Part shown: positions 1 to 12,070 of the stretch, piece after piece
Layout of the letters: each line of letters starts with the position of its first letter
Position numbering within the stretch: position 1 is the first letter of the stretch
Source of the DNA: Gemmatimonadota bacterium
GTDB taxonomy: Bacteria; Gemmatimonadota; Gemmatimonadetes; Gemmatimonadales; GWC2-71-9
Length of the DNA: 64,000 nucleotides
Assembly: GCA_036679605.1 (NCBI GenBank)
Contig: JAZDCZ010000040.1
Location: forward strand, 1-64,000
Direction of reading: 5' to 3'
Translations under genes and position numbers: made by a program
Notes under the pieces: model-generated
The model's database searches: none
What the model was told of the DNA's origin: nothing
The model's input: the letters and a program-made list of their open reading frames with translations, nothing else

Positions 1-542
1 GTCACGCTCTTCGCTAGAGGGTTCGGCGGCTTTGACTGATGCTAATGCGGGATTTCGGCGATTTACTGGTGATTGGAGGGCGAAATGTCGCGTTTTGACT
101 ATGGCGTGTCGCGTCTTGCTGATGCGCGGGCCGGTGGGGTTACCCTATCATATAATCCGTTCGGGAAGGCAAGGCCCTCGTTCAGCGGTGTCGACCCCGG
201 GCAGGCAACCGTGAAGAGCCGAGTCTTCGGGGATGGGGAGCGCATGTACAGTGAGTCTAAAGGTTGGATGCCACGAGTGCTGTTCTGTGGGGGTCTCGGA
301 GCCAAAGAGACAAGTTGATCAAACGACGTCATGCGAAAGTCTAGCGAACTTGTCCCCAGACGACAGAATGGCAAAGATCGGTATGGCGACAAAATTCCAC
401 CGCGTCATACGACAGGCATGCCTGGTCGCCGATCAAATGGCACTGGACGAGTGTTGCCCGCCGTGGAGCGAGTGAAGCGGCGTTCGCGATGAACTGTGTT
501 GCGCGATCTATCGGTAACAATCCCAATCAAAAGGAGGCAGGT

Positions 543-758
543 ATGAAACACAGACGAATTCGGTTACTTGCGAGCGTAGTCATGGCGATGGCTTCGGCTA
601 CGGCACTTACACCAGAGGTCGCGATGGCGGAAACAATCTGCCAGTGTACGCCAATTTCAGGACTATGCAACTGCTGTTCGTGGAATGGAGACGAGTTCGA
701 GGGCTGCGGCATCGTCGGTGCGTGTAGCCTTCCCCCCTGCAGGGAGGAGCCACAATAA
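543..758 (+). CDS. Small secreted cysteine-rich peptide (71 aa; ~29-aa signal peptide, 42-aa mature part with 8 Cys)
   Basis: AAGGAGG RBS upstream of ATG 543; basic N-terminus MKHRRIR, hydrophobic stretch, AMA cleavage site; mature ETICQCTPISGLCNCCSWNGDEFEGCGIVGACSLPPCREEPQ. Confidence 0.8.
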   Translation: MKHRRIRLLASVVMAMASATALTPEVAMAETICQCTPISGLCNCCSWNGDEFEGCGIVGACSLPPCREEPQ

Positions 759-840
759 TACACATCATTTGGAAGGCGTGTCCCTCTTAGGGCCACGCCT
801 TCCGCACCTTCCAACGACGCAACGCCCGAGAGGTCTCCAA

Positions 841-1485
841 TTGAAAAAGGAAATCTTGTCGAATGTGATAACGGGTGCGCTAGTTGTTGCAGCCCTCGTT
901 ATGAGTGTTAGCGCTGTAAGGCGCAGTCTGATAACTAACCGCCGTGGTCCATCCATTTCAGAACCCCGCAAGCTCGACACGGACTACGAGCTGACGTCAG
1001 TTGGTCATGTGATCGGCCCGGAAAAAGCATCGGTGAAGATTGTCGAGTTCTCTGATTTTCAATGTCCCGGCTGCGGGGCCATGCAACGCATACTCGCCGT
1101 ATTGCGTGAGCGACACCCAGATGTGGCTGTTGTCTTTCGGCATTGGCCATTACGGCGCATCCATCCGCATGCTTACTCAGCAGCGCTCGCCGCCGAGTGT
1201 GCAGGCGAGCAGGGACGCTTCGAACCATATGCGGATGCGTTGTATGGCGAACAGTGGAGAATCGGAGTCAAACCATGGGATGCGTTCGCTCGCGATGTGG
1301 GTGTTCAGGATCTCGCAGGGTTTCAGCAGTGTCTTGATGAGGCTCGTTACGCGAACATTGTGACACGAGACTTGGAAACAGCAGAGGAATTGCAGCTGTC
1401 GGCGACGCCGACTATAATTGTGAACGGGTTCGTTCTTGTGGCACCCCCGCTTGCAATGATCGAGGACTATATCCAACGGAGGTGA
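841..1485 (+). CDS. DsbA-family (thioredoxin_4-like) membrane-anchored thiol-disulfide oxidoreductase
   Basis: N-terminal TM helix; IVEFSDFQCPGC active site; HWPL and ATP cis-Pro motifs; TTG start inferred. Confidence 0.85.
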   Translation: MKKEILSNVITGALVVAALVMSVSAVRRSLITNRRGPSISEPRKLDTDYELTSVGHVIGPEKASVKIVEFSDFQCPGCGAMQRILAVLRERHPDVAVVFRHWPLRRIHPHAYSAALAAECAGEQGRFEPYADALYGEQWRIGVKPWDAFARDVGVQDLAGFQQCLDEARYANIVTRDLETAEELQLSATPTIIVNGFVLVAPPLAMIEDYIQRR

Positions 1486-2729
1486 CAGTGCCGGCGCAAC
1501 GACGAGGCTTGCGGCGACAGGCTGTCATAGCGTTTGCGACGGCCACGCTGCTTGGTTGTAATCGGGCAACATCGGAGAGTCGGTCTGCTCGAGTCCTTAG
1601 TTACGATGCTCCGGACACAGTGATCAATTCGCTCCGAGGAGTGTGGTCTAAGGGATCCGCTTGGCAGGTTGTAGAGGATCTGGCTATTGGGACCCGAGAC
1701 GGTCCCCCGGAATACTCGTTCTTCGGCCCCCTGCTAGTGAATGTTGATTCGCAGGGGCGAGTCTATGTCCTGGTCGTGACGGCCGGTCAGGTCCATGTCT
1801 TCGACACAGCAGGCGAGTTTCTCTATGCGTTCGGCGGCATCGGGAAGGGACCCGCGGAATTTCAAGTGCCGTCAGGGCTCACGATCATCGGCGACACAAT
1901 GCTTGCCGTCATCGATCAACGCCTGCAAAAGCTCGCTTTGTTTACTATGGCTGGCGAGCTGATCAGTACGGCCGAGACCGACATTCGTCCTTTTCGGGAT
2001 GGCTGGGTGAGACGCGTGATGGGACTGGACGGGCGAACAGTGCTTGTCGAAACTTTCCATGGTTGGCTGTACCCGAGTCCAGGCAAACACGATGGCATGG
2101 GCCGGCTCATTGTACTCGCGCTAGACGGTGCAGTGGTTGACACGTTCGCCCTATTCAGCGGTCCCGCTGTCACGATAGATCGTGAGCATAGCCGTCACCC
2201 GGAAGTCTTTTTTCGGCCGTTTGCACCCGCCGTCTACTGGGGAGTTACGACGGAAGGTCATGTAGGCTTCGGCCGAAGTGACGAGTACCGGATTACCGAG
2301 TACACTAAAGATGCCCAGCCAGTTCGGATGGTCCGACGAGATGTTGCACCGCGCCCGGTATCCAAATCAGATGTCGATGTTTATCGAGACGAATTTCCGA
2401 ACGGAAGAGGCAGGGACGGGCTCAAGCCACGAGATCGTCGCTTCGTTGAAGGTATACTGACACAGATGGATATGCCGTTGGCGTGGCCGGCGTTCGATGC
2501 TATCGAGTATGATGACCTCGGGAATCTGTGGGTGCGGCTGTCGGGAGGATCTGCCGAGGCCGTTAGGAAATGGGACGTGTTTGACAACCAGCGTCGGTAT
2601 CTCGGTGTCGTACAGGTCCCCGCTGACCTGAAGATCCACAAGATCTCGGCGAGTGCCATATACGGTGTGTCGCACGATGAATTGGGAGTTCCTTACGTCA
2701 AGCGTTACCGAATCAAACAAACGCCATGA
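1482..2729 (+). CDS. 6-bladed beta-propeller (NHL/TolB-like) lipoprotein
   Basis: Lipobox LLGC; GKGPAEFQVP, VDSQGRVYV, DDLGNLWV and WDVFD..RYLG motifs; C-terminal DELGVPYVKRY; GTGA overlap with the DsbA gene. Confidence 0.85.
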   Translation: MTVPAQRRGLRRQAVIAFATATLLGCNRATSESRSARVLSYDAPDTVINSLRGVWSKGSAWQVVEDLAIGTRDGPPEYSFFGPLLVNVDSQGRVYVLVVTAGQVHVFDTAGEFLYAFGGIGKGPAEFQVPSGLTIIGDTMLAVIDQRLQKLALFTMAGELISTAETDIRPFRDGWVRRVMGLDGRTVLVETFHGWLYPSPGKHDGMGRLIVLALDGAVVDTFALFSGPAVTIDREHSRHPEVFFRPFAPAVYWGVTTEGHVGFGRSDEYRITEYTKDAQPVRMVRRDVAPRPVSKSDVDVYRDEFPNGRGRDGLKPRDRRFVEGILTQMDMPLAWPAFDAIEYDDLGNLWVRLSGGSAEAVRKWDVFDNQRRYLGVVQVPADLKIHKISASAIYGVSHDELGVPYVKRYRIKQTP

Positions 2730-2829
2730 TAATGTTGCTGCCAGAGAGTGGCGTCCTCTTAGGACGCTTTGCTCGGCCGAGCCCGGTCTCGTCAGGCCGA
2801 GACTCCTCTCGCAGCCCAAGCACTTCATT

Positions 2830-2870
2830 ATTCTACATTCCCTGTTCCCTGTTCGATATTCGATATTTCG
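2830..2870. repeat. Heptamer tandem tract (RTTCNNN: ATTCTAC ATTCCCT GTTCCCT GTTCGAT ATTCGAT)
   Basis: Read directly; three similar units recur at 5889-5909. Confidence 0.7.
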
Positions 2871-2894
2871 TCACTCCGACACCAACGGCACCCC
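2850..2894. repeat. Direct repeat copy A of the HAD nucleotidase gene 3' end plus downstream heptamers (copy B at 5888-5933)
   Basis: TGTTCGATATTCGATATTTCG-TCACTCCGACACCAACGGCACCCC vs TGTTCGAGATTCGATATTCAACTCACTCCGACACCAGCGGCACACC; both encode GVPLVSE* on the minus strand. Confidence 0.85.
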
Positions 2895-2895
2895 C

Positions 2896-3171
2896 GTGTT
2901 CGTGCCGGCAACGATCGCTCGAAGAGCTGCATGGGTCGAAGCGGCCAAAACAAGCCGTGCGCTTGAGCCTGCGCTTGCGTCACACGCCAGTCTCACTGCG
3001 GCCGATCGTTTCGAGCTTAGGAGGATCGAGGAGTTGGACGCAGTACCGTCTTCCTTCAATCAGTTCGGCGTAGACGTCTCCGGGTTCACCCAGGTGGACG
3101 CGGGAACCGTGCGGCTTGCTTCGGATCATGGCTCTGAGTGGTCCGCGCTTCGAATACGAGTCCGAAAATGA
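2896..3171 (+). pseudogene. 5'-truncated gene remnant of unknown function
   Basis: Protein-like frame ending ...EWSALRIRVRK* whose TGA overlaps the next ATG (ATGA 3168-3171); no plausible start right of the repeat junction. Confidence 0.45.
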
Positions 3172-4267
3172 CTGTCACGGTACTTCGCCTGCTCGGCAGC
3201 CTTGCGGTCGCCGCGCTGGTGGTTGCGTGCGACGATTCATCCCGCCTTTCTGCGTTCCCGGAACTCGCGAGTGCGGGTATGTTGGACGCGGGCGTGATTC
3301 CAGAAGCGGATTCCAACGACCGGATAGCACTCGGCGCACGATTGTTCGAGGATGTAGGTCTTTCGCGCGACTCAACGATCAGCTGCGCCACGTGCCACAT
3401 GCCTAGCCACGCCTTTGCGGAGCCGCGGGCCGTGAGTCATGGCATCGGCGAGCGCGCTCGAAAGCGCAATACTCCGTCACTCATCAACATAGGGGTGTTT
3501 CGATCGAGCTTCGATTGGGATGGCCGTGCGGCCACGCTGGAGGATCAACTGCACGGCGTGTTTGCGGTCACCGGCGATATGGGCATTGACCTGGGTGAGG
3601 CGGTGGCGCGAGTGAGGGAAGACAGCAGCTACGACATGGCTTTTCGCCGCGCCTACGGACGACGTCCGGACGTCGATGCCTTCCTGGACGCTCTCGTAGC
3701 CTTTCAGAGATCTCTGGTGGTAAGCGAGTCGCGGTTCGATCGATTCTATCTCGGTGGAGATTCCACGGCGCTTTCGGAGTCGGAGAAACGAGGTTGGCGT
3801 CTGTTTCGGAGCAATCAGGCGGGCTGCGCGGGTTGTCACGTTCCGCTACCGGATCGTGAGGTTTCGGGCGTGATGATCTTTAGGGACGCCAGGGTTCACA
3901 ATCTTGGCGTCGGGTATGAGACGGGCGTATGGAGGACGTCGGTCGCTACGGAGTGACTCGCCAGCCGCACGCTTGGGGCGCATTCATAACACCCCCTCTT
4001 AACAACGTCGCTTTGACTGCACCGTATATGCATGACGGGAGCCTGGCAACGTTGGAGGATGTTGTGGAGTTCTATGAGCACGGGGGCACTGGGAACCCAA
4101 ACATCGACCCGGTGATTGTTCGTAGAGAGCTCACAGAGCAGGATCGGGCGGATTTGGTGGCATTTCTTCGTGCGCTCACTACAGAATGGCTTGCCGATTC
4201 CCTCGCAGTTAGAGAACGGTTTCTCCGGTTCGATCGACACGCAGGCACGAATATGGATATTCAGTGA
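3168..4267 (+). pseudogene. Diheme cytochrome c peroxidase/MauG-family lipoprotein, frameshifted near 3920-3929
   Basis: Lipobox VVAC; CATCH and CAGCH heme motifs; RNTPSL and WDGRA; after the frameshift GAFITPPLNNVALTAPYMHDGSLATLEDVV; could be a sequencing error. Confidence 0.85.
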
Positions 4268-4323
4268 GATAGCTTCGTTGGCCAGATGCGGCTTTGACAT
4301 GGACAGAGGTTTCAGGAGAGACA

Positions 4324-5418
4324 ATGAGAGTCACGACGGTTTTGATGATGGCGGCGGCAACCACCGCACTTGGCTGTAACATGGCGGGTGACCAGGACGT
4401 GGGAATAGGCTCCGAAGTATCATGCCCGTCGTGCTCCATCGTCATCAATACGGTCGTCACGCTCGAGCATGTCTTCTTCACCGGGCCCTCGACGGCGATA
4501 GCCCGGGACTCGATCGGCATGTTCTACGTGGTAGACCGCACCGATGGTCTCTTGAAGGCCTTTGGCAGTGACGGCCGCCTCGTGCGGTCGATCGGCCGGC
4601 ACGGCGGAGGGCCCGGCGAATACGAGATGGTCCGCAATATACTTGTCGCGCGGGACGGCTCGATCCAAGTCCTAGACATGGTGTTGGGGCGTCGTAGCGT
4701 GTTCGGACGGGACGGTGAGGTCGTCAGCACCACCCGAGTCCCCCTTCCGCCAGCGTTTAGCCACTCTGCCGTGCTTCGCTCGGACGGTCAACTGGCCATC
4801 AGCGCAGTGAGCACGGCCGCCGCGGCGGGCTGGGTTAACGCGGTACAACTTATCGACGCAGAGGGGAATGTCACCAGTTCAGTCGATAAGACGCTGTTTG
4901 ATCGCAACGCACAATGGCGCCAGGAGCGCCTCCTGTGGGGACGGCAAAATGGCGAGTTGTTGGTGGCACGACCCTACTCCCTCACCATAGACGTGTACAC
5001 CTCAGATCTCACCAAGAAGGGGTCAATTACGCGAGTTGCAGATTGGTTTCCCTCGCGGGAACCCGAAGGGGAGCCAAGCGATGGACTGTTCGACGAGCCC
5101 TTGACGCCCCGTTTGATGGCGATCTGGGAAGACGGGCGGGGACTGCTTTGGTTTGAGGTGGTGGTGCCGTCTCCTTCATGGACGCCAAAGAGACGGGTGG
5201 CAGACCTAAGCAAGGAGGCCTATGCCAAGCTAGGCAGCAGGCCTCGGTTTGAGACGATCATCGAGGTTCTGGACGTGGAGCGTCGACGCGTCTTGGCTCG
5301 TTCCCGCTTTAACGATCACGTCGGCGTGGCCTTCGGAAGGGGCTTCTATGCAACCCCTGTGGAGGATTCGATCGGCGAACCCCATCTGCGCATCTCACAC
5401 ATTGAACTCAAACAATGA
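4324..5418 (+). CDS. 6-bladed beta-propeller lipoprotein
   Basis: AGGAG RBS; lipobox ALGC; CPSC; GRHGGGPGEY; EDGRGLLW; IEVLD; C-terminal DSIGEPHLRI. Confidence 0.85.
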   Translation: MRVTTVLMMAAATTALGCNMAGDQDVGIGSEVSCPSCSIVINTVVTLEHVFFTGPSTAIARDSIGMFYVVDRTDGLLKAFGSDGRLVRSIGRHGGGPGEYEMVRNILVARDGSIQVLDMVLGRRSVFGRDGEVVSTTRVPLPPAFSHSAVLRSDGQLAISAVSTAAAAGWVNAVQLIDAEGNVTSSVDKTLFDRNAQWRQERLLWGRQNGELLVARPYSLTIDVYTSDLTKKGSITRVADWFPSREPEGEPSDGLFDEPLTPRLMAIWEDGRGLLWFEVVVPSPSWTPKRRVADLSKEAYAKLGSRPRFETIIEVLDVERRRVLARSRFNDHVGVAFGRGFYATPVEDSIGEPHLRISHIELKQ

Positions 5419-5427
5419 GGAGGAGAC

Positions 5428-5885
5428 ATGAACAAGAAGAAGAGAGTCCTGGCCACTGCTGCCATGGTCGGAGTCCTGTATGCCGGGAGCGCTATTAGAC
5501 CAACCGTTGGAGAGGCCACGCTATGTTTCGCGTGCATAGACGGGTGAGACGAGTATGAGCAAGAATGGACGCATATTGACTTCTTTAACTTCATAAACTC
5601 CTTTCATGACGTTCAAAAGCACTCCGGCGAGACTATCGGCAAGTGCAATGTGCACTCCAATTACGAAGGTAGCGGTGTCCCCGAATGATGACCAACGAGG
5701 CCAATCGCTCGCGGAGGCGGCACTAGAGAGACACAACGAGGTTCTCCTCAATGTGCTCCTGGAGAAAGCACCTGCAGCGCTTAGCGCTGCAGGTGCTCGG
5801 CAACGGTGGAGCAACGGTCCTGCATGTACCGCTTACGGTCAGGCGAGATCGTGCAATCGCAAGAGGCGCTCTCGCAGGCGAATGA
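5428..5885 (+). pseudogene. Small secreted Cys/His-containing protein, interrupted by an in-frame TGA (5545-5547) and probably two frameshifts
   Basis: GGAGGAG RBS; MNKKKRVLATAAMVGVLYAGSAIRPTVGEA signal; TLCFACIDG*DEYEQEWTHIDFFNFINSFHDVQKHSGETIGKCNVH; protein-like continuation in +1 and +2 frames to TGA 5883-5885; absent from the ORF track. Confidence 0.6.
5767..5797. repeat. Perfect inverted repeat (15-bp arms, 1-nt centre)
   Basis: AGCACCTGCAGCGCT-T-AGCGCTGCAGGTGCT. Confidence 0.9.
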
Positions 5886-5909
5886 GGTGTTCGAGATTCG
5901 ATATTCAAC

Positions 5910-7388
5910 TCACTCCGACACCAGCGGCACACCATCCGGATCGTGTGGTAAGCTTCCCCGCGGCGCACGCAGATATACGAAGGGCGTGTGGTAAAGGAAG
6001 TTGGAGACCCGGGACAAGTAAATGTCTGCGTAGCGCTCGACCTGCCGCGCTAGATGGCTCTTGTCGTTGCCGGCACGCATGAGCGGCCCCCACCGGGAAT
6101 TGCCGATCGTAGCCGCTGCGGTCGCCAGCGGAGCGATCTCCTCGTCGAGTGCGTTGAGCTTGTTGCGCACCTGTGAAATTCGTTGATCGATTTGTTTGAT
6201 GGAGGTCTTCCGGGTAGGTCCGTAAGCACGGCGCTTGCGCTGAATGTCCAACCGCAGGCGCGATGACTGAAACTCGAGCCGCTCCTTCTGAATCATCAAT
6301 CGCGAGAGATGCTTCTGCTGATTTTCGAACGCGGCCATCTCCGACAAATCCGATTCCAACTCGCGCAACACGAGCGCCGTACGCCATTGCAGGATGTTCT
6401 TGGAGACGTGGACGTCGGTGAAGAGATGGTCCCCGACGTAGAGAATCTCGTCGCCCGACAGGCCGAGGTACTGTTCGACCAACGACGCGCTGCCGCCGAG
6501 GTATATGCCCGGTGACTCGAGGCCCAATGGACAGATTTCCAGAAGACCTTCTTCGCTTACGACGCGGAATAACGGGCTGGGTGTGGTGAAGAAAGCAGGC
6601 TTCCTGGACGCCACGATCACCACTTCGAATAGATCCCGCCACGTCATCTCGCCGGGCAGGTACTCGTTGAACGCGTAGTCCATCATCGTTCGCGTGTAGT
6701 ACCACTCGGAGTTGGTGATCAACAAGAGTTTCTTGCCGGCGTGTAACTGATCGAGCAACGTGAGCGGAGTGTCCGGGTCCAGCTCGATGAAGCGATCGGG
6801 GTCGGCGATTATCTCGGCCTTCAAACGGCCCTCCATGTGGGCCTCGTCGATCGACGATCTGCAGCGGCGATATAGATCGAAGTATCCCAACACTCCGGGC
6901 AACTCGCCCGCGTCCAGCAGATCGACCAATTGAGCGAACATCGAGGCTTCGGATACCGAAAAGAAGGTGTTCAAGAACACCCAACGCTTCTCCGCTAGAT
7001 CCACCAACGTGCCCCCGTATTGCGCGCGCAGTTCGTGATGCTCGAGTCTGCGCGTACCGTGATACGCTCGCTTGATATAGCCGAACCGGTTGGCCTTGAG
7101 CGTGTTCCCCGACTCTACATCGAGTACCAATCCGCGAATCACCAGGTCCGGATCGAACTGCAAATCCTGAACGGGCCACTTCAAATCCTGCAGCTTGGCT
7201 TTCAGGTACTCGTAGGCTCGTCGTTCCCATTCCTCCACTCGATAGTGGACCAACGTGTAGTCCATGTCATAGCCGATCGCCCTAATCGAGCGGAGATTGA
7301 GCGTGCGGTTGCAGAAGATCCCGCGTTCGCGATCGATTTTGAGTGAGATTGCGCGGTGGCCTGATGTGCGTTGTGCCACTCTGTTCAT
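5910..7388 (-). CDS. HAD-IG family 5'-nucleotidase (cN-II-like)
   Basis: IGYDMDYTLVHY, LITNS, ASRKP and YVGDHLFTDV motifs; RYADIY. Confidence 0.93.
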   Translation of the reverse strand: MNRVAQRTSGHRAISLKIDRERGIFCNRTLNLRSIRAIGYDMDYTLVHYRVEEWERRAYEYLKAKLQDLKWPVQDLQFDPDLVIRGLVLDVESGNTLKANRFGYIKRAYHGTRRLEHHELRAQYGGTLVDLAEKRWVFLNTFFSVSEASMFAQLVDLLDAGELPGVLGYFDLYRRCRSSIDEAHMEGRLKAEIIADPDRFIELDPDTPLTLLDQLHAGKKLLLITNSEWYYTRTMMDYAFNEYLPGEMTWRDLFEVVIVASRKPAFFTTPSPLFRVVSEEGLLEICPLGLESPGIYLGGSASLVEQYLGLSGDEILYVGDHLFTDVHVSKNILQWRTALVLRELESDLSEMAAFENQQKHLSRLMIQKERLEFQSSRLRLDIQRKRRAYGPTRKTSIKQIDQRISQVRNKLNALDEEIAPLATAAATIGNSRWGPLMRAGNDKSHLARQVERYADIYLSRVSNFLYHTPFVYLRAPRGSLPHDPDGVPLVSE

Positions 7389-8188
7389 GCCTCCGGTTTC
7401 GCTCTGACGAAGTGGTTGAGTGGTCCGTGCCCCTGCCCGTTCCCGATGCCGGGTGCCGTTGCAATGCCTCGTTGGACGAAATCTACAGCGGCGGCGGTCG
7501 CGGTCTCTACATCTGCCCCCAGTGCCAACCCTGCGGCAATGGCTGCGGAAAGAGTGCAGCCGGTACCATGAGTGGATGTCGTGTCAATCTTCTCGTGCGT
7601 GAAATGTCGCGTCACATTCTCCGCAACAAGAACGTCTACGATCTCATCGTCTCTCAGATGACCTCCCTTGATTAATGCCGCACCGGCGCCCATGCCGACG
7701 AGGGCCTTTCCCGCTTCCTCCATTCGTTCCACGGTATCGACTTGGGCTTCCACGAGTATTGTTGCCTCGGCGAGGTTCGGGGTCACCAGTGTGGCAAGTG
7801 GCACAAGAGCATCCCTTAACCTACGCTCCGCTGCCGCATCGAGGAGACGGTCGCCCGATGTTGCTACCATCACCGGGTCGAGCACGTAGTTGGCGAGTTT
7901 ACGCTCAGCCATTTCACGGGCTACCAATTCCACTATCCCCAAAGTCCCGAGCATGCCGGTTTTTACTGCGTCCGGCTCGAGATCGTTGGCAACTGCTTTC
8001 AGCTGAGCCGTGACGGTTTCCTCGGGAATGGAGTGGATTGCGAAGACGCCCAGTGTATTCTGTGCCGTCACTGCAGTCACAACGCATGTGCCGAATACAC
8101 CGAATTGATGGAACGTCTTGAGATCGGCTTGGATGCCGGCCCCGCCCCCGGAGTCGGAACCGGCGATGGTAAGTGCTATCTTCATCAC
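7385..8188 (-). CDS. thiD: Hydroxymethylpyrimidine/phosphomethylpyrimidine kinase
   Basis: [39 protein letters not shown]. Confidence 0.96.
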
Positions 8189-8287
8189 TAGTGCTTGGCG
8201 AGTAGGCCTGTTCGCAACAGATTGACTGGTTTCCTATCGTGGACCGGCATGCCGAACCGCATCTGATAAATGCATGGAGCGAGTTTC

Positions 8288-9055
8288 ATGGCGTCGAGTC
8301 TGGTTACACTGGCACGGAATCTACAACAGCGGAAGGTCCGGAAGCGCAAAGGTCTTGCGGTGGCGGAGGGAGTGCGCTTAGTAGAGGAGGCGCTTCAGTC
8401 CGGCATATCTATTCAGGGTGCTCTCGCCAGCAGGTCCCTTGAGACCGCGCAGCGGGGAGCCGAGTTGCTGGAAGAACTGGCGGCGCGCAGCGTAACCATC
8501 GACCGGGTAGACGACAGTACTCTGGCCGATCTAGCCGACACCGAGACGCCGCAGGGTATCCTGGCGATTGTCGAGCCGCCGATCGTTTCGGTGGACTCGA
8601 TCCTGCCCAGACCCGGCGCGCCCGTCATCGTGTTGGATGCTGTGCAGGATCCGGGCAATGCGGGTACGCTGTTGCGAACTGCGTTCGGGTTGGGCGCAGG
8701 AGGAGCGATCCTGCTCAGAGGATCCGCAGATCTGACCAATCCCAAGGTCTTGCGGGCGGCCATGGGTGCGAGCTTCCAACTACCCGTGGCGCGTGCCACG
8801 CAGCTGGAATTCGCCGAGTGGGTGGAGACAACCCAGACGGACATTTGGGTTGCCGCCATCAGCGGTACGCCACTAGAGCAGATAGCAAAGCCCATTCAAG
8901 TCACCTTCGTGGTGGGCAACGAAGGCGCTGGCGTGCGCGACGAGATCGCCCGGCACGCAAGCCAGCGGGTTGCGATCCCGCTCGCCCGGGGGGCCGAGTC
9001 ACTCAACGTGGCGATTGCCGCGGGGATCATTCTCTATGAGATCCAGCGTGGTTGA
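8288..9055 (+). CDS. TrmH/SpoU-family RNA methyltransferase
   Basis: DAVQDPGNAGTLLRTA, VGNEGAG, ESLNVAIA. Confidence 0.93.
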   Translation: MASSLVTLARNLQQRKVRKRKGLAVAEGVRLVEEALQSGISIQGALASRSLETAQRGAELLEELAARSVTIDRVDDSTLADLADTETPQGILAIVEPPIVSVDSILPRPGAPVIVLDAVQDPGNAGTLLRTAFGLGAGGAILLRGSADLTNPKVLRAAMGASFQLPVARATQLEFAEWVETTQTDIWVAAISGTPLEQIAKPIQVTFVVGNEGAGVRDEIARHASQRVAIPLARGAESLNVAIAAGIILYEIQRG

Positions 9056-9815
9056 ATCATTGCCTCTTGCGTTCGCCGGTGTCTTGGGCGCCATGATCGG
9101 GAGTTTCCTCAACGTCATGATCGTGAGGCTGCCGGCCGAAGAGTCGATCGTCCGGCCGCGGTCCAAGTGCCCTAGCTGCCAGAAGCAAATTGAATGGTAC
9201 GACAATATTCCCGTCTTGTCTTGGATAATCCTGGGTGGAAAGTGCCGTCGCTGCAGGGCGTCTGTCTCTATACAATATCCATTGATCGAGCTTGCGGTTG
9301 CGGGAATCTGGGCTGCCAGTTTATGGCACTACGGTATTACTTGGACCGCCCTATCTGGGGCGGTGTTCGGGACCATTCTAGCCGGAATCGCTGTCACCGA
9401 TGCGCGACATTATCTGATACCCGACGAGTACACCTGGGGTGGGCTGGCGATAGGGTTGCTGCTCGCTGTGTCCCTGGGGTCGAACGGGTTGATCGATGCA
9501 GGAATAGGTGCCGCGGTGGGATTCGGATTGCTGTACCTGGTGGCCGTTCTGGGCGAGAAGGCGTTCGGCAAGGAGGCGATGGGCGGTGGCGATATCAAGA
9601 TGATGGCCATGGTAGGCGCCTTCGTCGGGTGGAAAGGCGTGCTGCTCACCATTTTCGGCGGTTCGCTTCTGGGAACTCTCATATTTGTACCCCTCTCACT
9701 GAAGAAGAAGAAACTGGTTCCTTTCGGGGTCTTTCTGGCCCCAGCGGCAGCACTCACCTTCGTCTTCGGTGACGATCTGCTCCGGTGGTACCTGGGGTTT
9801 GTGATCGGTGGCTGA
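9048..9815 (+). CDS. pilD: Type IV prepilin peptidase (A24)
   Basis: GSFLNV, RSKCPSC, WYDNIPVLS, KCRRC, MGGGDIKM, VPFGVFL; GTG start inferred. Confidence 0.93.
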   Translation: MVESLPLAFAGVLGAMIGSFLNVMIVRLPAEESIVRPRSKCPSCQKQIEWYDNIPVLSWIILGGKCRRCRASVSIQYPLIELAVAGIWAASLWHYGITWTALSGAVFGTILAGIAVTDARHYLIPDEYTWGGLAIGLLLAVSLGSNGLIDAGIGAAVGFGLLYLVAVLGEKAFGKEAMGGGDIKMMAMVGAFVGWKGVLLTIFGGSLLGTLIFVPLSLKKKKLVPFGVFLAPAAALTFVFGDDLLRWYLGFVIGG

Positions 9816-9824
9816 CGTGGGTGT

Positions 9825-9844
9825 GGGCGACGCATGCGTCGCCC
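9825..9844. repeat. Perfect 20-bp palindrome, REP-like
   Basis: GGGCGACGCATGCGTCGCCC just after the pilD stop. Confidence 0.65.
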
Positions 9845-9888
9845 CTTTCAGCACTTCCGTTTCCCTTTTCCGATCCCCAGACTCCCTC

Positions 9889-9916
9889 CAACCTTTCCCA
9901 TCATTCTGCTATCAAA
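9889..9916 (+). promoter_or_regulatory. Possible ECF sigma autoregulatory promoter
   Basis: CAACCT-N16-ATCAAA upstream of the ECF gene resembles the AAC...TC pattern of ECF promoters. Confidence 0.3.
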
Positions 9917-9947
9917 CGGGGTGTAATGGCTAAGATGGGTCCCCAGG

Positions 9948-10502
9948 GTGGCCGTACTGCATAGCAGTCGGGACCCGACGCAGGCCGACGCAGATGCGGC
10001 GGACGCAGTGCTGGCGGCCAGCGGAGACGCAAAGGCCTTCGAGCGGCTGTACGAGGGCCACGTTGCCAGAATCCACAGCTTGGCGCGGCGGATGATCGGT
10101 GTCGATGAGGCTGACGATGTAACGCAAGACGTGTTCGTGCGAGTCTGGGACAAGCTTGGAAGCTTCCGCGGAGACGCCGCCTTTGGCACCTGGCTCTATC
10201 GTCTGGCGATCAACGTGATCTTAGGAAAGAGAGAATCATTGGCACGCCAGCGTGGTCGAATTCAGGAAGGCGAAGAGATGCTGGATCGGGCGGAGACCAG
10301 GCGCAGCCATCCGGAATTGGTCATGGATTTTGAGGTGGCGATCGAGAAGCTGCCGCCTCGGGCACGACAGGTGTTCGTGTTGCACGATGTAGAGGGATTC
10401 AAACATCAGGAGATTGCAGCACAGTTGGGCGTTACGACGGGCACGAGTAAAGCGCAGTTACACCGAGCGCGGATGGCGCTCCGAAAACACGTTGATCGGT
10501 AA
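9948..10502 (+). CDS. ECF RNA polymerase sigma factor
   Basis: GDAKAFERLY, DVTQDVF, FGTWLYRLAIN, LHDVEGFKHQEIA, GTSKAQLHRAR. Confidence 0.95.
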   Translation: MAVLHSSRDPTQADADAADAVLAASGDAKAFERLYEGHVARIHSLARRMIGVDEADDVTQDVFVRVWDKLGSFRGDAAFGTWLYRLAINVILGKRESLARQRGRIQEGEEMLDRAETRRSHPELVMDFEVAIEKLPPRARQVFVLHDVEGFKHQEIAAQLGVTTGTSKAQLHRARMALRKHVDR

Positions 10503-10514
10503 CGGAGTGAGTTC

Positions 10515-11201
10515 ATGAGCGATAATTGGACAGATAGGCTTTCCGAATATTTGGATGAAACCCTCGCTGACGCAGAACGGGCGGGGCTAGAAGCCCATCT
10601 GCAACGGTGCACGGACTGCGCAGCAGTGCTAAAGCAGTTGCGGAGCGTGGTATTCCGCGCCGAAGTGCTCGAGGATCGCCCACCGACCAAGAATTTATGG
10701 CCCGAGATTGCACAGCGGATCAAGGTGGGTCCAGAGGCCGGCATAACGGACATCGAACAACGTCGATCCAGAAACCGCAGAACGCTGTCCGTTTCCGTTC
10801 CGCAACTCTTGGCGGCGAGCGTGGCTCTGATGATGATGTCGGGTGGAGCAGTTTGGTTCTCGTTGTCAGGTGGGCAATCGAGCAACCAGGTGGCGGTTGC
10901 GCCCGATCTGCGAACGGGTACGGCTGTGGCAGTATTGACCGGGTTCACCACGACCGAATACGACGAAGCTGTAGCTGAGTTACAAGAAATTTTGGGGAGC
11001 GCCAAGGATCGGCTGGATTCCGGCACCGTTCGGGTGCTGGAGGAGAGCCTGGCCACGATAGATCGTGCGATAAACGAGGCCCGCGCCGCGATAGACGCGG
11101 ATCCGGAAAGCGATTACCTGAATTCTCACCTCGCGGCAACAATGAAACGCAAGGTGCAACTATTGAAACGGGCTGCGACGATCGCTGCCGCAGCTGCCTA
11201 G
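10515..11201 (+). CDS. Zinc-finger (zf-HC2) anti-sigma factor
   Basis: LSEYLD...HLQRCTDC; TM helix; follows the ECF gene. Confidence 0.9.
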   Translation: MSDNWTDRLSEYLDETLADAERAGLEAHLQRCTDCAAVLKQLRSVVFRAEVLEDRPPTKNLWPEIAQRIKVGPEAGITDIEQRRSRNRRTLSVSVPQLLAASVALMMMSGGAVWFSLSGGQSSNQVAVAPDLRTGTAVAVLTGFTTTEYDEAVAELQEILGSAKDRLDSGTVRVLEESLATIDRAINEARAAIDADPESDYLNSHLAATMKRKVQLLKRAATIAAAAA

Positions 11202-11221
11202 TTAGGAAGGATCGATTAGAG

Positions 11222-12070
11222 GTGTTGACAACGCTACTGACAGCGGCACTCATGAGCGCTGCTGTTGCTCAACAGACCGATACGGTGTTCGCGGTTCGGC
11301 AAGGATCGCGGCTCACCATAGAGAATTTCAGCGGGCGAGTAGTAGTGCGCACTTGGAGCCGCAACGAGATGCGAGTGGTCGCAGATCATTCCAGTCGTAC
11401 TGCGATAGCAATCAATATGCGCGGCGCAGATGTCGAGTTGGAGGCAGAGTCGCGCCGCGGCGTCCCCACCGCCGTTGACTACGAGATCACAGTTCCCGTG
11501 CAGACAGATGTATCGATTGAAGGAACCTTTACCGATGCCGATGTAAGAGGCGTGCAAGGTGAAGTCACGGTGGAAACGGTCCAGGGGCAGATCGTTGTCG
11601 AAGGTGGCAGTGGTTTTGTAAGTCTGGAGTCGGTGCAGGGCGATATAGAACTGACGGGCGCAACTGGAAAAATCGACGTCCAGTCGGTCAATGGAGTCAT
11701 GCGACTGACGAGTGTTGCTGGGGAGATCTACGTCGAAGGGGTAAATGGTAGCGTCATCCTTACTGACATCAACTCCTCGGATGTCGAAGCCACGACTACC
11801 AATGGCAATATCAGTTACGACGGATCGATTGAAGACGATGGCAGGTACTCGTTTTCGAATCACAACGGCGACGTGACGGTTGCGATACCTGCCGGAACCA
11901 ACGCCACTGTCAACGTATATACGTTCGGTGGCGATTTCGAAACCACTTTTCCTGTGACTCTTGCGGAGACGCGGCGTCAAGGACGGCGCTACAGGTTCAC
12001 GATCGGCAAGGGTGGTGCAAGGATAGAACTGGAGTCATTCAACGGCAGGCTGCGACTGCGCCGGCGGTAA
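11222..12070 (+). CDS. DUF4097 beta-strand repeat (adhesin-like) exported protein
   Basis: Signal peptide; repeated (T/S)V(N/Q)G.I motifs. Confidence 0.85.
   Translation: MLTTLLTAALMSAAVAQQTDTVFAVRQGSRLTIENFSGRVVVRTWSRNEMRVVADHSSRTAIAINMRGADVELEAESRRGVPTAVDYEITVPVQTDVSIEGTFTDADVRGVQGEVTVETVQGQIVVEGGSGFVSLESVQGDIELTGATGKIDVQSVNGVMRLTSVAGEIYVEGVNGSVILTDINSSDVEATTTNGNISYDGSIEDDGRYSFSNHNGDVTVAIPAGTNATVNVYTFGGDFETTFPVTLAETRRQGRRYRFTIGKGGARIELESFNGRLRLRRR

Follow-up and report, generated by a model that had tools for sequence, protein, structure and literature searches.

A recurrent gene cassette of Gemmatimonadota encodes a likely disulfide-bonded mini-protein beside a DsbA-type enzyme and a beta-propeller lipoprotein

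The left end of the window (the whole 64,000-nucleotide stretch of Gemmatimonadota DNA analysed here) carries three genes in a row on the forward strand, which encode a small protein with a predicted Sec signal, a thiol-disulfide oxidoreductase and a beta-propeller lipoprotein (Table 1). A preliminary description had read these genes as a 71-aa ORF with a strong ribosome-binding site, a Sec-type signal and a 42-aa, 8-Cys mature part, a membrane-anchored CPGC protein of the DsbA family, and a translationally coupled six-bladed propeller lipoprotein. These assignments were confirmed, with the leader judged by a crude filter, the anchor taken from a hydrophobic N-terminus and the six blades from Pfam and Atlas labels. 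All three genes are real and intact.

Table 1. Features of the three-gene cassette and its edges (window coordinates).
Feature	Position	Strand	Details
Left anchor common to contig C223 and to X2 contigs with differing contents behind it	1..127	.	Joints 127->2885, 118->534, 135->2751
Shine-Dalgarno AGGAGG of the mini-protein gene	532..537	+	Sequence
71-aa mini-protein: predicted 29-aa Sec signal (543-629) and acidic 8-Cys 42-aa mature part (630-755)	543..758	+	Ortholog with Cys kept; single-sequence model; three-stranded beta-sheet modelled
RNA hairpin between the mini-protein and DsbA genes	771..803	+	-29.4 kcal/mol, z -3.73, 0/200 shuffles
Cassette-type DsbA/ScsC-like thiol-disulfide oxidoreductase	841..1485	+	TTG start; PF13462; CPGC at residues 75-78; predicted N-terminal hydrophobic anchor
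413-aa DUF5128-like (NHL-type) beta-propeller lipoprotein	1488..2729	+	Start 3 nt past the DsbA stop, or at 1482 overlapping the stop
REP-like palindromic repeat near the cassette right edge; copies on other contigs	2751..2805	.	z -3.3
3' remnant (~95 codons) of a 485-aa ORF	2885..3171	+	ORF whole in C223; 5' part replaced by the cassette

In the mini-protein leader, a basic N-terminus precedes a hydrophobic stretch and a cleavage-type A-M-A site, as judged with a crude in-house filter rather than SignalP; export through Sec and cleavage after residue 29 are likely. The mature part has exactly the Cys spacing Cx1Cx6Cx1CCx9Cx5Cx4C, bears a net charge of -5 and contains neither His nor Met. A sediment run from a separate study (X2) yielded a 3581-bp contig that spans 534-2733, and with it the whole trio, at 237 differences. 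Of the 19 changes listed within the mini-protein ORF, third codon positions account for 12, first positions for 5 and second positions for 2 (hand count); there are no indels, 8/8 Cys are kept and protein identity is 87%. Moreover, these changes match the ortholog P0006 exactly, in which eight of the nine residue changes lie in the mature part and every Cys is retained. Across the genome, the crude filter picked out 24 small secreted ORFs of 6 or more Cys. Three hexamer shuffles gave counts of 5, 6 and 5, which sets the false hits of the filter at 5-6 per shuffled genome. Because the X2 ortholog keeps both the frame and all Cys, and because the filter count exceeds that of the shuffles, the mini-protein gene is more than a chance ORF. 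Its sequence relatives are few: among 5.8 billion clusters there was no homolog outside its own cluster, in which P0006 also sits, 40 relatives gave no convincing homolog (best E 0.006), and Pfam, NCBIfam and PDB sequences gave zero matches. The best Atlas score, 0.84, is a lead only. A sigma-70 scan found no site upstream of the gene and Rfam gave 0 hits on positions 1-6000.

Modelled alone and from a single sequence, the mature mini-protein was folded by AlphaFold2 into three strands (residues 2-7, 12-19 and 22-31) with no helix, at a pLDDT of 86. The best match of this model among 48,161 chains had a Z of 3.0, which is noise level, and the search therefore establishes neither a new nor a known fold; weak rows at Z 2.7-2.8 include the anemone toxin Ms13-1 and laterosporulin3. 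The suggestion that the peptide is defensin- or knottin-like is not supported by these comparisons. PMC11561630 gives the CS-alpha-beta pattern of cis-defensins as CX(2,18)CX3CX(2,12)CX(4,17)CXC, which the mature mini-protein fails, and the single-sequence model lacks a helix on a beta-hairpin. Nor does its spacing match that of the inhibitor cystine knot, or knottin, in the loose form of that pattern used here. The mini-protein is likely folded into a four-disulfide acidic product.

The second gene matches PF13462 (E 6e-24, 85.5 bits over a cutoff of 23.2) and PF01323 (59.4 bits over a cutoff of 25.6). Residues C75, C78 and T189-P190 are invariant across the 7 cassette DsbA paralogs of this genome, as is a second Cys pair (C120, C164), and the cis-Pro loop reads T-P-T. 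The nearest solved relatives of the DsbA profile are of the ScsC, DsbA and BdbD type, and also include 'copper resistance' proteins. According to PMC11634996, ScsCs have both oxidase and reductase activities and bind copper only in the reduced form. Since the closest solved relatives are ScsC/DsbA-like, an oxidase and an isomerase role are both possible for the cassette enzyme. Between this gene and the mini-protein gene lies a strong hairpin (Table 1). Within it, the listed X2 changes are confined to three loop bases and one mismatch that is now a pair, and the stem is kept. A strong hairpin follows 12/34 cassette peptide genes compared with 7/69 control genes, and the hairpin likely sets a ratio in which the peptide is in excess.

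The lipoprotein has the lipobox LLGC and matches PF17170 over residues 90-170 only (E 2.4e-7, 30.7 bits against a cutoff of 22.9). Its Atlas neighbours at 0.97 are from Gemmatimonadota and carry PF17170 in 30-76% of members. The alignment invariants are G53, G82, G84, P85, E87 and W311, with no obvious catalytic set among them. Across the phylum many DsbA-propeller pairs are spaced by -3 to +7 nt. Moreover, six full-length DsbA-propeller fusions occur in 4 genomes, all belonging to family f7 with a mutual identity of 29-66%, and they may represent one or two events. The fusion proteins at L222, L239, L268, L270 and L273 are 583-616 aa long, one of them ending at the locus edge, and 3/5 of the fusion loci lie beside peptide genes; a shorter, partial fusion of 453 aa is found at L219. 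In view of this tight coupling, and of the fusions in 4 genomes, we read DsbA and propeller as a putative maturation module.

The propeller had earlier been offered as a receptor or immunity protein, which now appears less likely than a role as partner of DsbA. In addition to the coupling and fusion of the two genes, similarity among 35 triples revealed no covariation of peptide and propeller (r -0.03, p 0.67) and a weak tracking of peptide and DsbA (r 0.12, p 0.03), in sequences that are near saturation. Most propellers of this family in the genome have no detectable Cys-peptide neighbour; such a neighbour was seen for 8/51 or, in a second count, 5/37. The propeller is itself dispensable or replaceable in cassettes: in a set of 60 loci, 37 bear a peptide and 10 of those lack a propeller. 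Other cassette neighbours include CarboxypepD_reg/Plug, PDZ and outer-membrane barrel proteins. Elsewhere in the genome, contig C427 carries at least 8 propeller paralogs on 24 kb, with 0 peptides by the crude filter.

The genome encodes 10 DsbA-like genes, 7 of which form the cassette-type subfamily. The remaining 3 include a VKOR-adjacent DsbA and a DsbC; general DsbA+VKOR and DsbC are thus encoded elsewhere and the cassette copies are therefore extra. Of the six other cassette-type DsbAs, five have an unrelated secreted ORF of 6-8 Cys no more than 3 kb away, and the sixth lies where its contig ends. By comparison, a secreted ORF of at least 6 Cys lies near 0/3 of the other DsbA-like genes and 81/4408 background ORFs. 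A profile of the seven cassette DsbAs matched 53/301 phylum genomes at E<=1e-45. Taking the best locus per genome in 29 other genomes, we found a peptide within 1.5 kb at 15, a propeller at 21 and both at 9; once loci were widened, a peptide was recognised by eye in 17/20. Another 60 loci not used before gave a peptide at 37, a propeller at 43, both at 27 and either at 53, in each case among loci picked with the cassette-built profile. Every peptide in this set (42/42) is on the DsbA strand. The preliminary description had proposed to look for small ORFs with even Cys numbers in the flanks of homologous DsbA/propeller pairs, and the scan recovered them.

Loci of other DsbAs differ. Generic GTDB DsbA loci (n=58) gave 1 peptide and 0 propellers, and 80 metagenome loci, retrieved with a single DsbA query that returned generic DsbAs only, gave 0 propellers and 2 plausible peptides. 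Outside the phylum, 151 genomes of the Acidobacteriota side and 101 of the Myxococcota side yielded 11 equal-scoring loci, which contained neither peptide nor propeller. In a quick DsbA tree (SH-aLRT only; L094, L158 and L178 left out) a generic clade of 68 rows (SH-aLRT 95) holds 1 labelled row, compared with 44/48 on the other side, where the named loci are from Gemmatimonadota. The trio is one copy of a recurrent, swappable Gemmatimonadota cassette. The recurrence of such ORFs at homologous loci also supports the earlier proposal of a dedicated DsbA-type enzyme adjoining a small, likely secreted and likely disulfide-bonded protein, and we consider a disulfide mini-protein with its own DsbA highly probable.

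The cassette peptides have several traits in common. Even Cys counts were found in 31/34 clusters (p 8e-7; one of the odd counts includes a leader Cys) and in 39/42 peptides of the 60-locus set (p 6e-9), p-values that are overstated as related genomes are not independent. Net charge is zero or below in 34/34 clusters and 40/42 peptides. There is no common Cys framework, and none of 22 cassette peptides tested reached a Pfam or NCBIfam cutoff. Even Cys numbers, non-positive charge, unshared frameworks and the lack of family matches together support the view that these are probably disulfide-locked, non-cationic and rapidly varying products.

Two further observations concern peptide genes. Homopolymer runs (G/C of 7-13; one T8) lie upstream of 12/66 cassette peptides, at loci that include L225, L236, L237, L253, L269 and L282; the frequency of such runs in these loci at large is ~0.057 per 450 bp. 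Phase variation is a possible explanation of these runs; the peptide gene of this window has no upstream run longer than G5. Secondly, contigs C415, C270, C347, C282, C18 and C89 of the same genome encode 8-Cys secreted peptide families that end in CCxC or CCCxS. Their leaders are nearly constant while their cores vary, and the C415 representative fits the CS-alpha-beta pattern.

The site of insertion is variable. Contig C223 carries bases 1-127 and resumes at 2885, with the 485-aa ORF whole. Because it shares both flanks in this way, positions 128-2884 replace the rest of the older ORF in the window, so that the cassette has displaced the greater part of an older gene. With 6.3% contamination recorded for the genome, C223 may have been co-assembled from a relative. 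In X2, the space between these anchors is filled in two other ways. Near the right edge of the cassette, positions 2751-2880 contain the REP-like palindrome together with short tandem units. At least 8 further contigs carry copies, and by our own reading some of these flank toxin-antitoxin-like small genes. Downstream, the three intact ORFs of the trio are followed by an operon that is decaying in the window. This second peptide operon (3138-5688, forward strand) comprises an MbnH/MauG-like di-heme gene, a DUF5128 propeller (4324-5418) and a small signal-peptide ORF from 5428. A frameshift near 3929-3956 splits the di-heme gene, which is whole in C223 (paralog locus L094). Codon 40 of the small ORF is an in-frame TGA; beyond it the frame is open to a stop common with C223, whose version encodes a His/Cys-rich protein of 95 aa. 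The operon is possibly a di-heme-modified secreted peptide system.

The reading that we favour, with a probability of roughly 0.55, is that of an exported, four-disulfide, acidic mini-protein that has its own DsbA and a propeller as folding partner. The mini-protein would be exported by Sec and its signal cut after residue 29, and would be made in excess owing to the hairpin. The cassette DsbA would form and/or shuffle its disulfides and be re-oxidised through the separate VKOR of the genome. The propeller lipoprotein may handle the peptide as the predicted substrate-holding partner of DsbA. Least certain is the last step, in which the finished mini-proteins would serve as polymorphic protein-binding ligands for strain-level recognition or competition and would not be membrane-lytic.

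Several other readings were weighed. The mini-protein could be a strain-specific pheromone or envelope signal, with the propeller as a receptor that signals to a kinase or anti-sigma factor whose gene lies elsewhere. Compact, acidic, hypervariable peptides do suit ligands, and on contig C422 a peptide and propeller pair adjoins an anti-sigma-like zf-HC2 protein that also has a redoxin domain. However, a regulator lies neither within nor beside the present cassette, peptide and propeller do not covary and the propeller is fused to DsbA in 4 genomes, and we regard such a signalling pair as unlikely. The C422 locus (L091, C422:3000-12221) consists of a 5-Cys peptide, a propeller and the zf-HC2/redoxin protein, and a DsbA-propeller-peptide-Plug cassette lies back to back with these genes.

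Mobile, multi-copy and polymorphic cassettes at a variable site, each with a dedicated oxidoreductase as at bacteroidetocin loci, could also encode narrow-spectrum toxins against an envelope protein of competitors, from which the propeller protects the producer. Bacteroidetocins reportedly hit BamA, which offers a precedent for such a target. Set against this, hardly any cassette peptide is cationic, the propeller is missing at many peptide loci, and fusion to a membrane-anchored DsbA would be unusual for an immunity protein. Moreover, the leader is of the Sec type, and neither a double-glycine leader nor a C39 peptidase-ABC exporter was found in positions 1-12000 of the window or in 36 neighbours scanned. 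A bacteriocin with its immunity protein is thus quite improbable. That the Cys-rich protein chelates copper or shuttles periplasmic electrons, kept reduced by a ScsC-like enzyme, is very unlikely: the enzyme's solved relatives, the redox and copper-binding behaviour of ScsCs and the MbnH-like di-heme gene downstream point that way, but the Cys counts are strongly biased to even numbers with no common metal-binding motif, the mature mini-protein is devoid of His and Met, copper genes number 0 among the 36 neighbours scanned and the di-heme gene is part of the older operon that was displaced.

Disulfide-rich mini-proteins are known mainly from animals, plants and fungi. The mini-protein cassette is real, conserved, mobile and apparently undescribed, and relatives of it bring dozens of unrelated 6-10-Cys frameworks (34 clusters, and 42 peptides from 60 further loci) to a little-cultured phylum, each with a candidate folding enzyme. 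More tentatively, we hypothesise that they could constitute a phylum-wide counterpart of the Cys-rich peptide libraries of venoms and plants, in which mobile cassettes with differing acidic scaffolds and an NHLRC2/SOQ1-like DsbA-propeller foldase, encoded alongside the gene of its substrate, would supply polymorphic ligands for recognition or conflict. Such cassettes may be a new source of stable scaffolds and oxidative-folding catalysts, and this one offers DUF5128 propellers and thioredoxin-propeller pairs a candidate substrate that can be tested.

Lastly, we compared the cassette with known systems. In agreement with the preliminary description, which did not recognise the trio as a named system, it matches no named family or paper within the literature searched, and no description of the cassette was found there. 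In Bacteroidota, small NVEALA (PF14055) proteins pair with DUF5128/BF3164 propellers. These resemble the present cassette in that small signal-peptide Cys proteins adjoin the same Pfam propeller family, and differ from it in that a dedicated DsbA is the core partner here. PF14055 had 0 matches in this genome at E<=0.1 and 0 among 22 cassette peptides, and no paper on the NVEALA-propeller pairing was found in the literature searched.

The cassette is likened to sublancin and bacteroidetocin loci because a dedicated oxidoreductase serves a Cys peptide there. Production of sublancin 168 is said, in work by Dorenbos in 2002, to require the thiol-disulfide oxidoreductase(s) BdbA/BdbB. In PMC2765640, such an enzyme is likewise needed for making the disulfide peptide, which is glycosylated and ABC-exported, and BdbB is a DsbB-type membrane enzyme; the cassette enzyme is DsbA/ScsC-like, and a modifying enzyme and exporter are absent. 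Bacteroidetocins (class IIf bacteriocins of Bacteroidales) come closer, as PMC6671954 describes a compact locus with a small Cys peptide (42-aa mature) that needs a dedicated thiol oxidoreductase, a gene that is also found here. Those loci have a GG leader, a C39-ABC exporter, a 5-TM protein, 4 Cys and known killing (PMC6671954), in contrast to the cassette with its Sec-type signal, no exporter, 8 Cys, acidic peptide, propeller lipoprotein and relatives without a shared framework. Bacterial cis-defensins and actifensins are also small, secreted, disulfide-rich peptides with signal peptides, and their paper (PMC11561630) has 0 hits each for DsbA, propellers and Gemmatimonadota in its main text; unlike them, the mini-protein is without the CS-alpha-beta motif and without a helix. 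For the enzyme and the propeller, the nearest likeness is with NHLRC2 and SOQ1, to whose chains there were weak profile hits. According to PMC6107167, NHLRC2 joins a thioredoxin domain to an NHL propeller with a cleft, so that a thioredoxin-fold CxxC domain stands beside an NHL-type propeller, as it does in the fusions found in relatives of this cassette. NHLRC2 and SOQ1 are eukaryotic, have a thioredoxin-like domain with CCINC in one chain and stand without an adjacent peptide gene, whereas the fusions in relatives combine the propeller with a DsbA that has a helical insertion, and the window encodes the two as separate genes, with a CPGC motif, directly behind the mini-protein.
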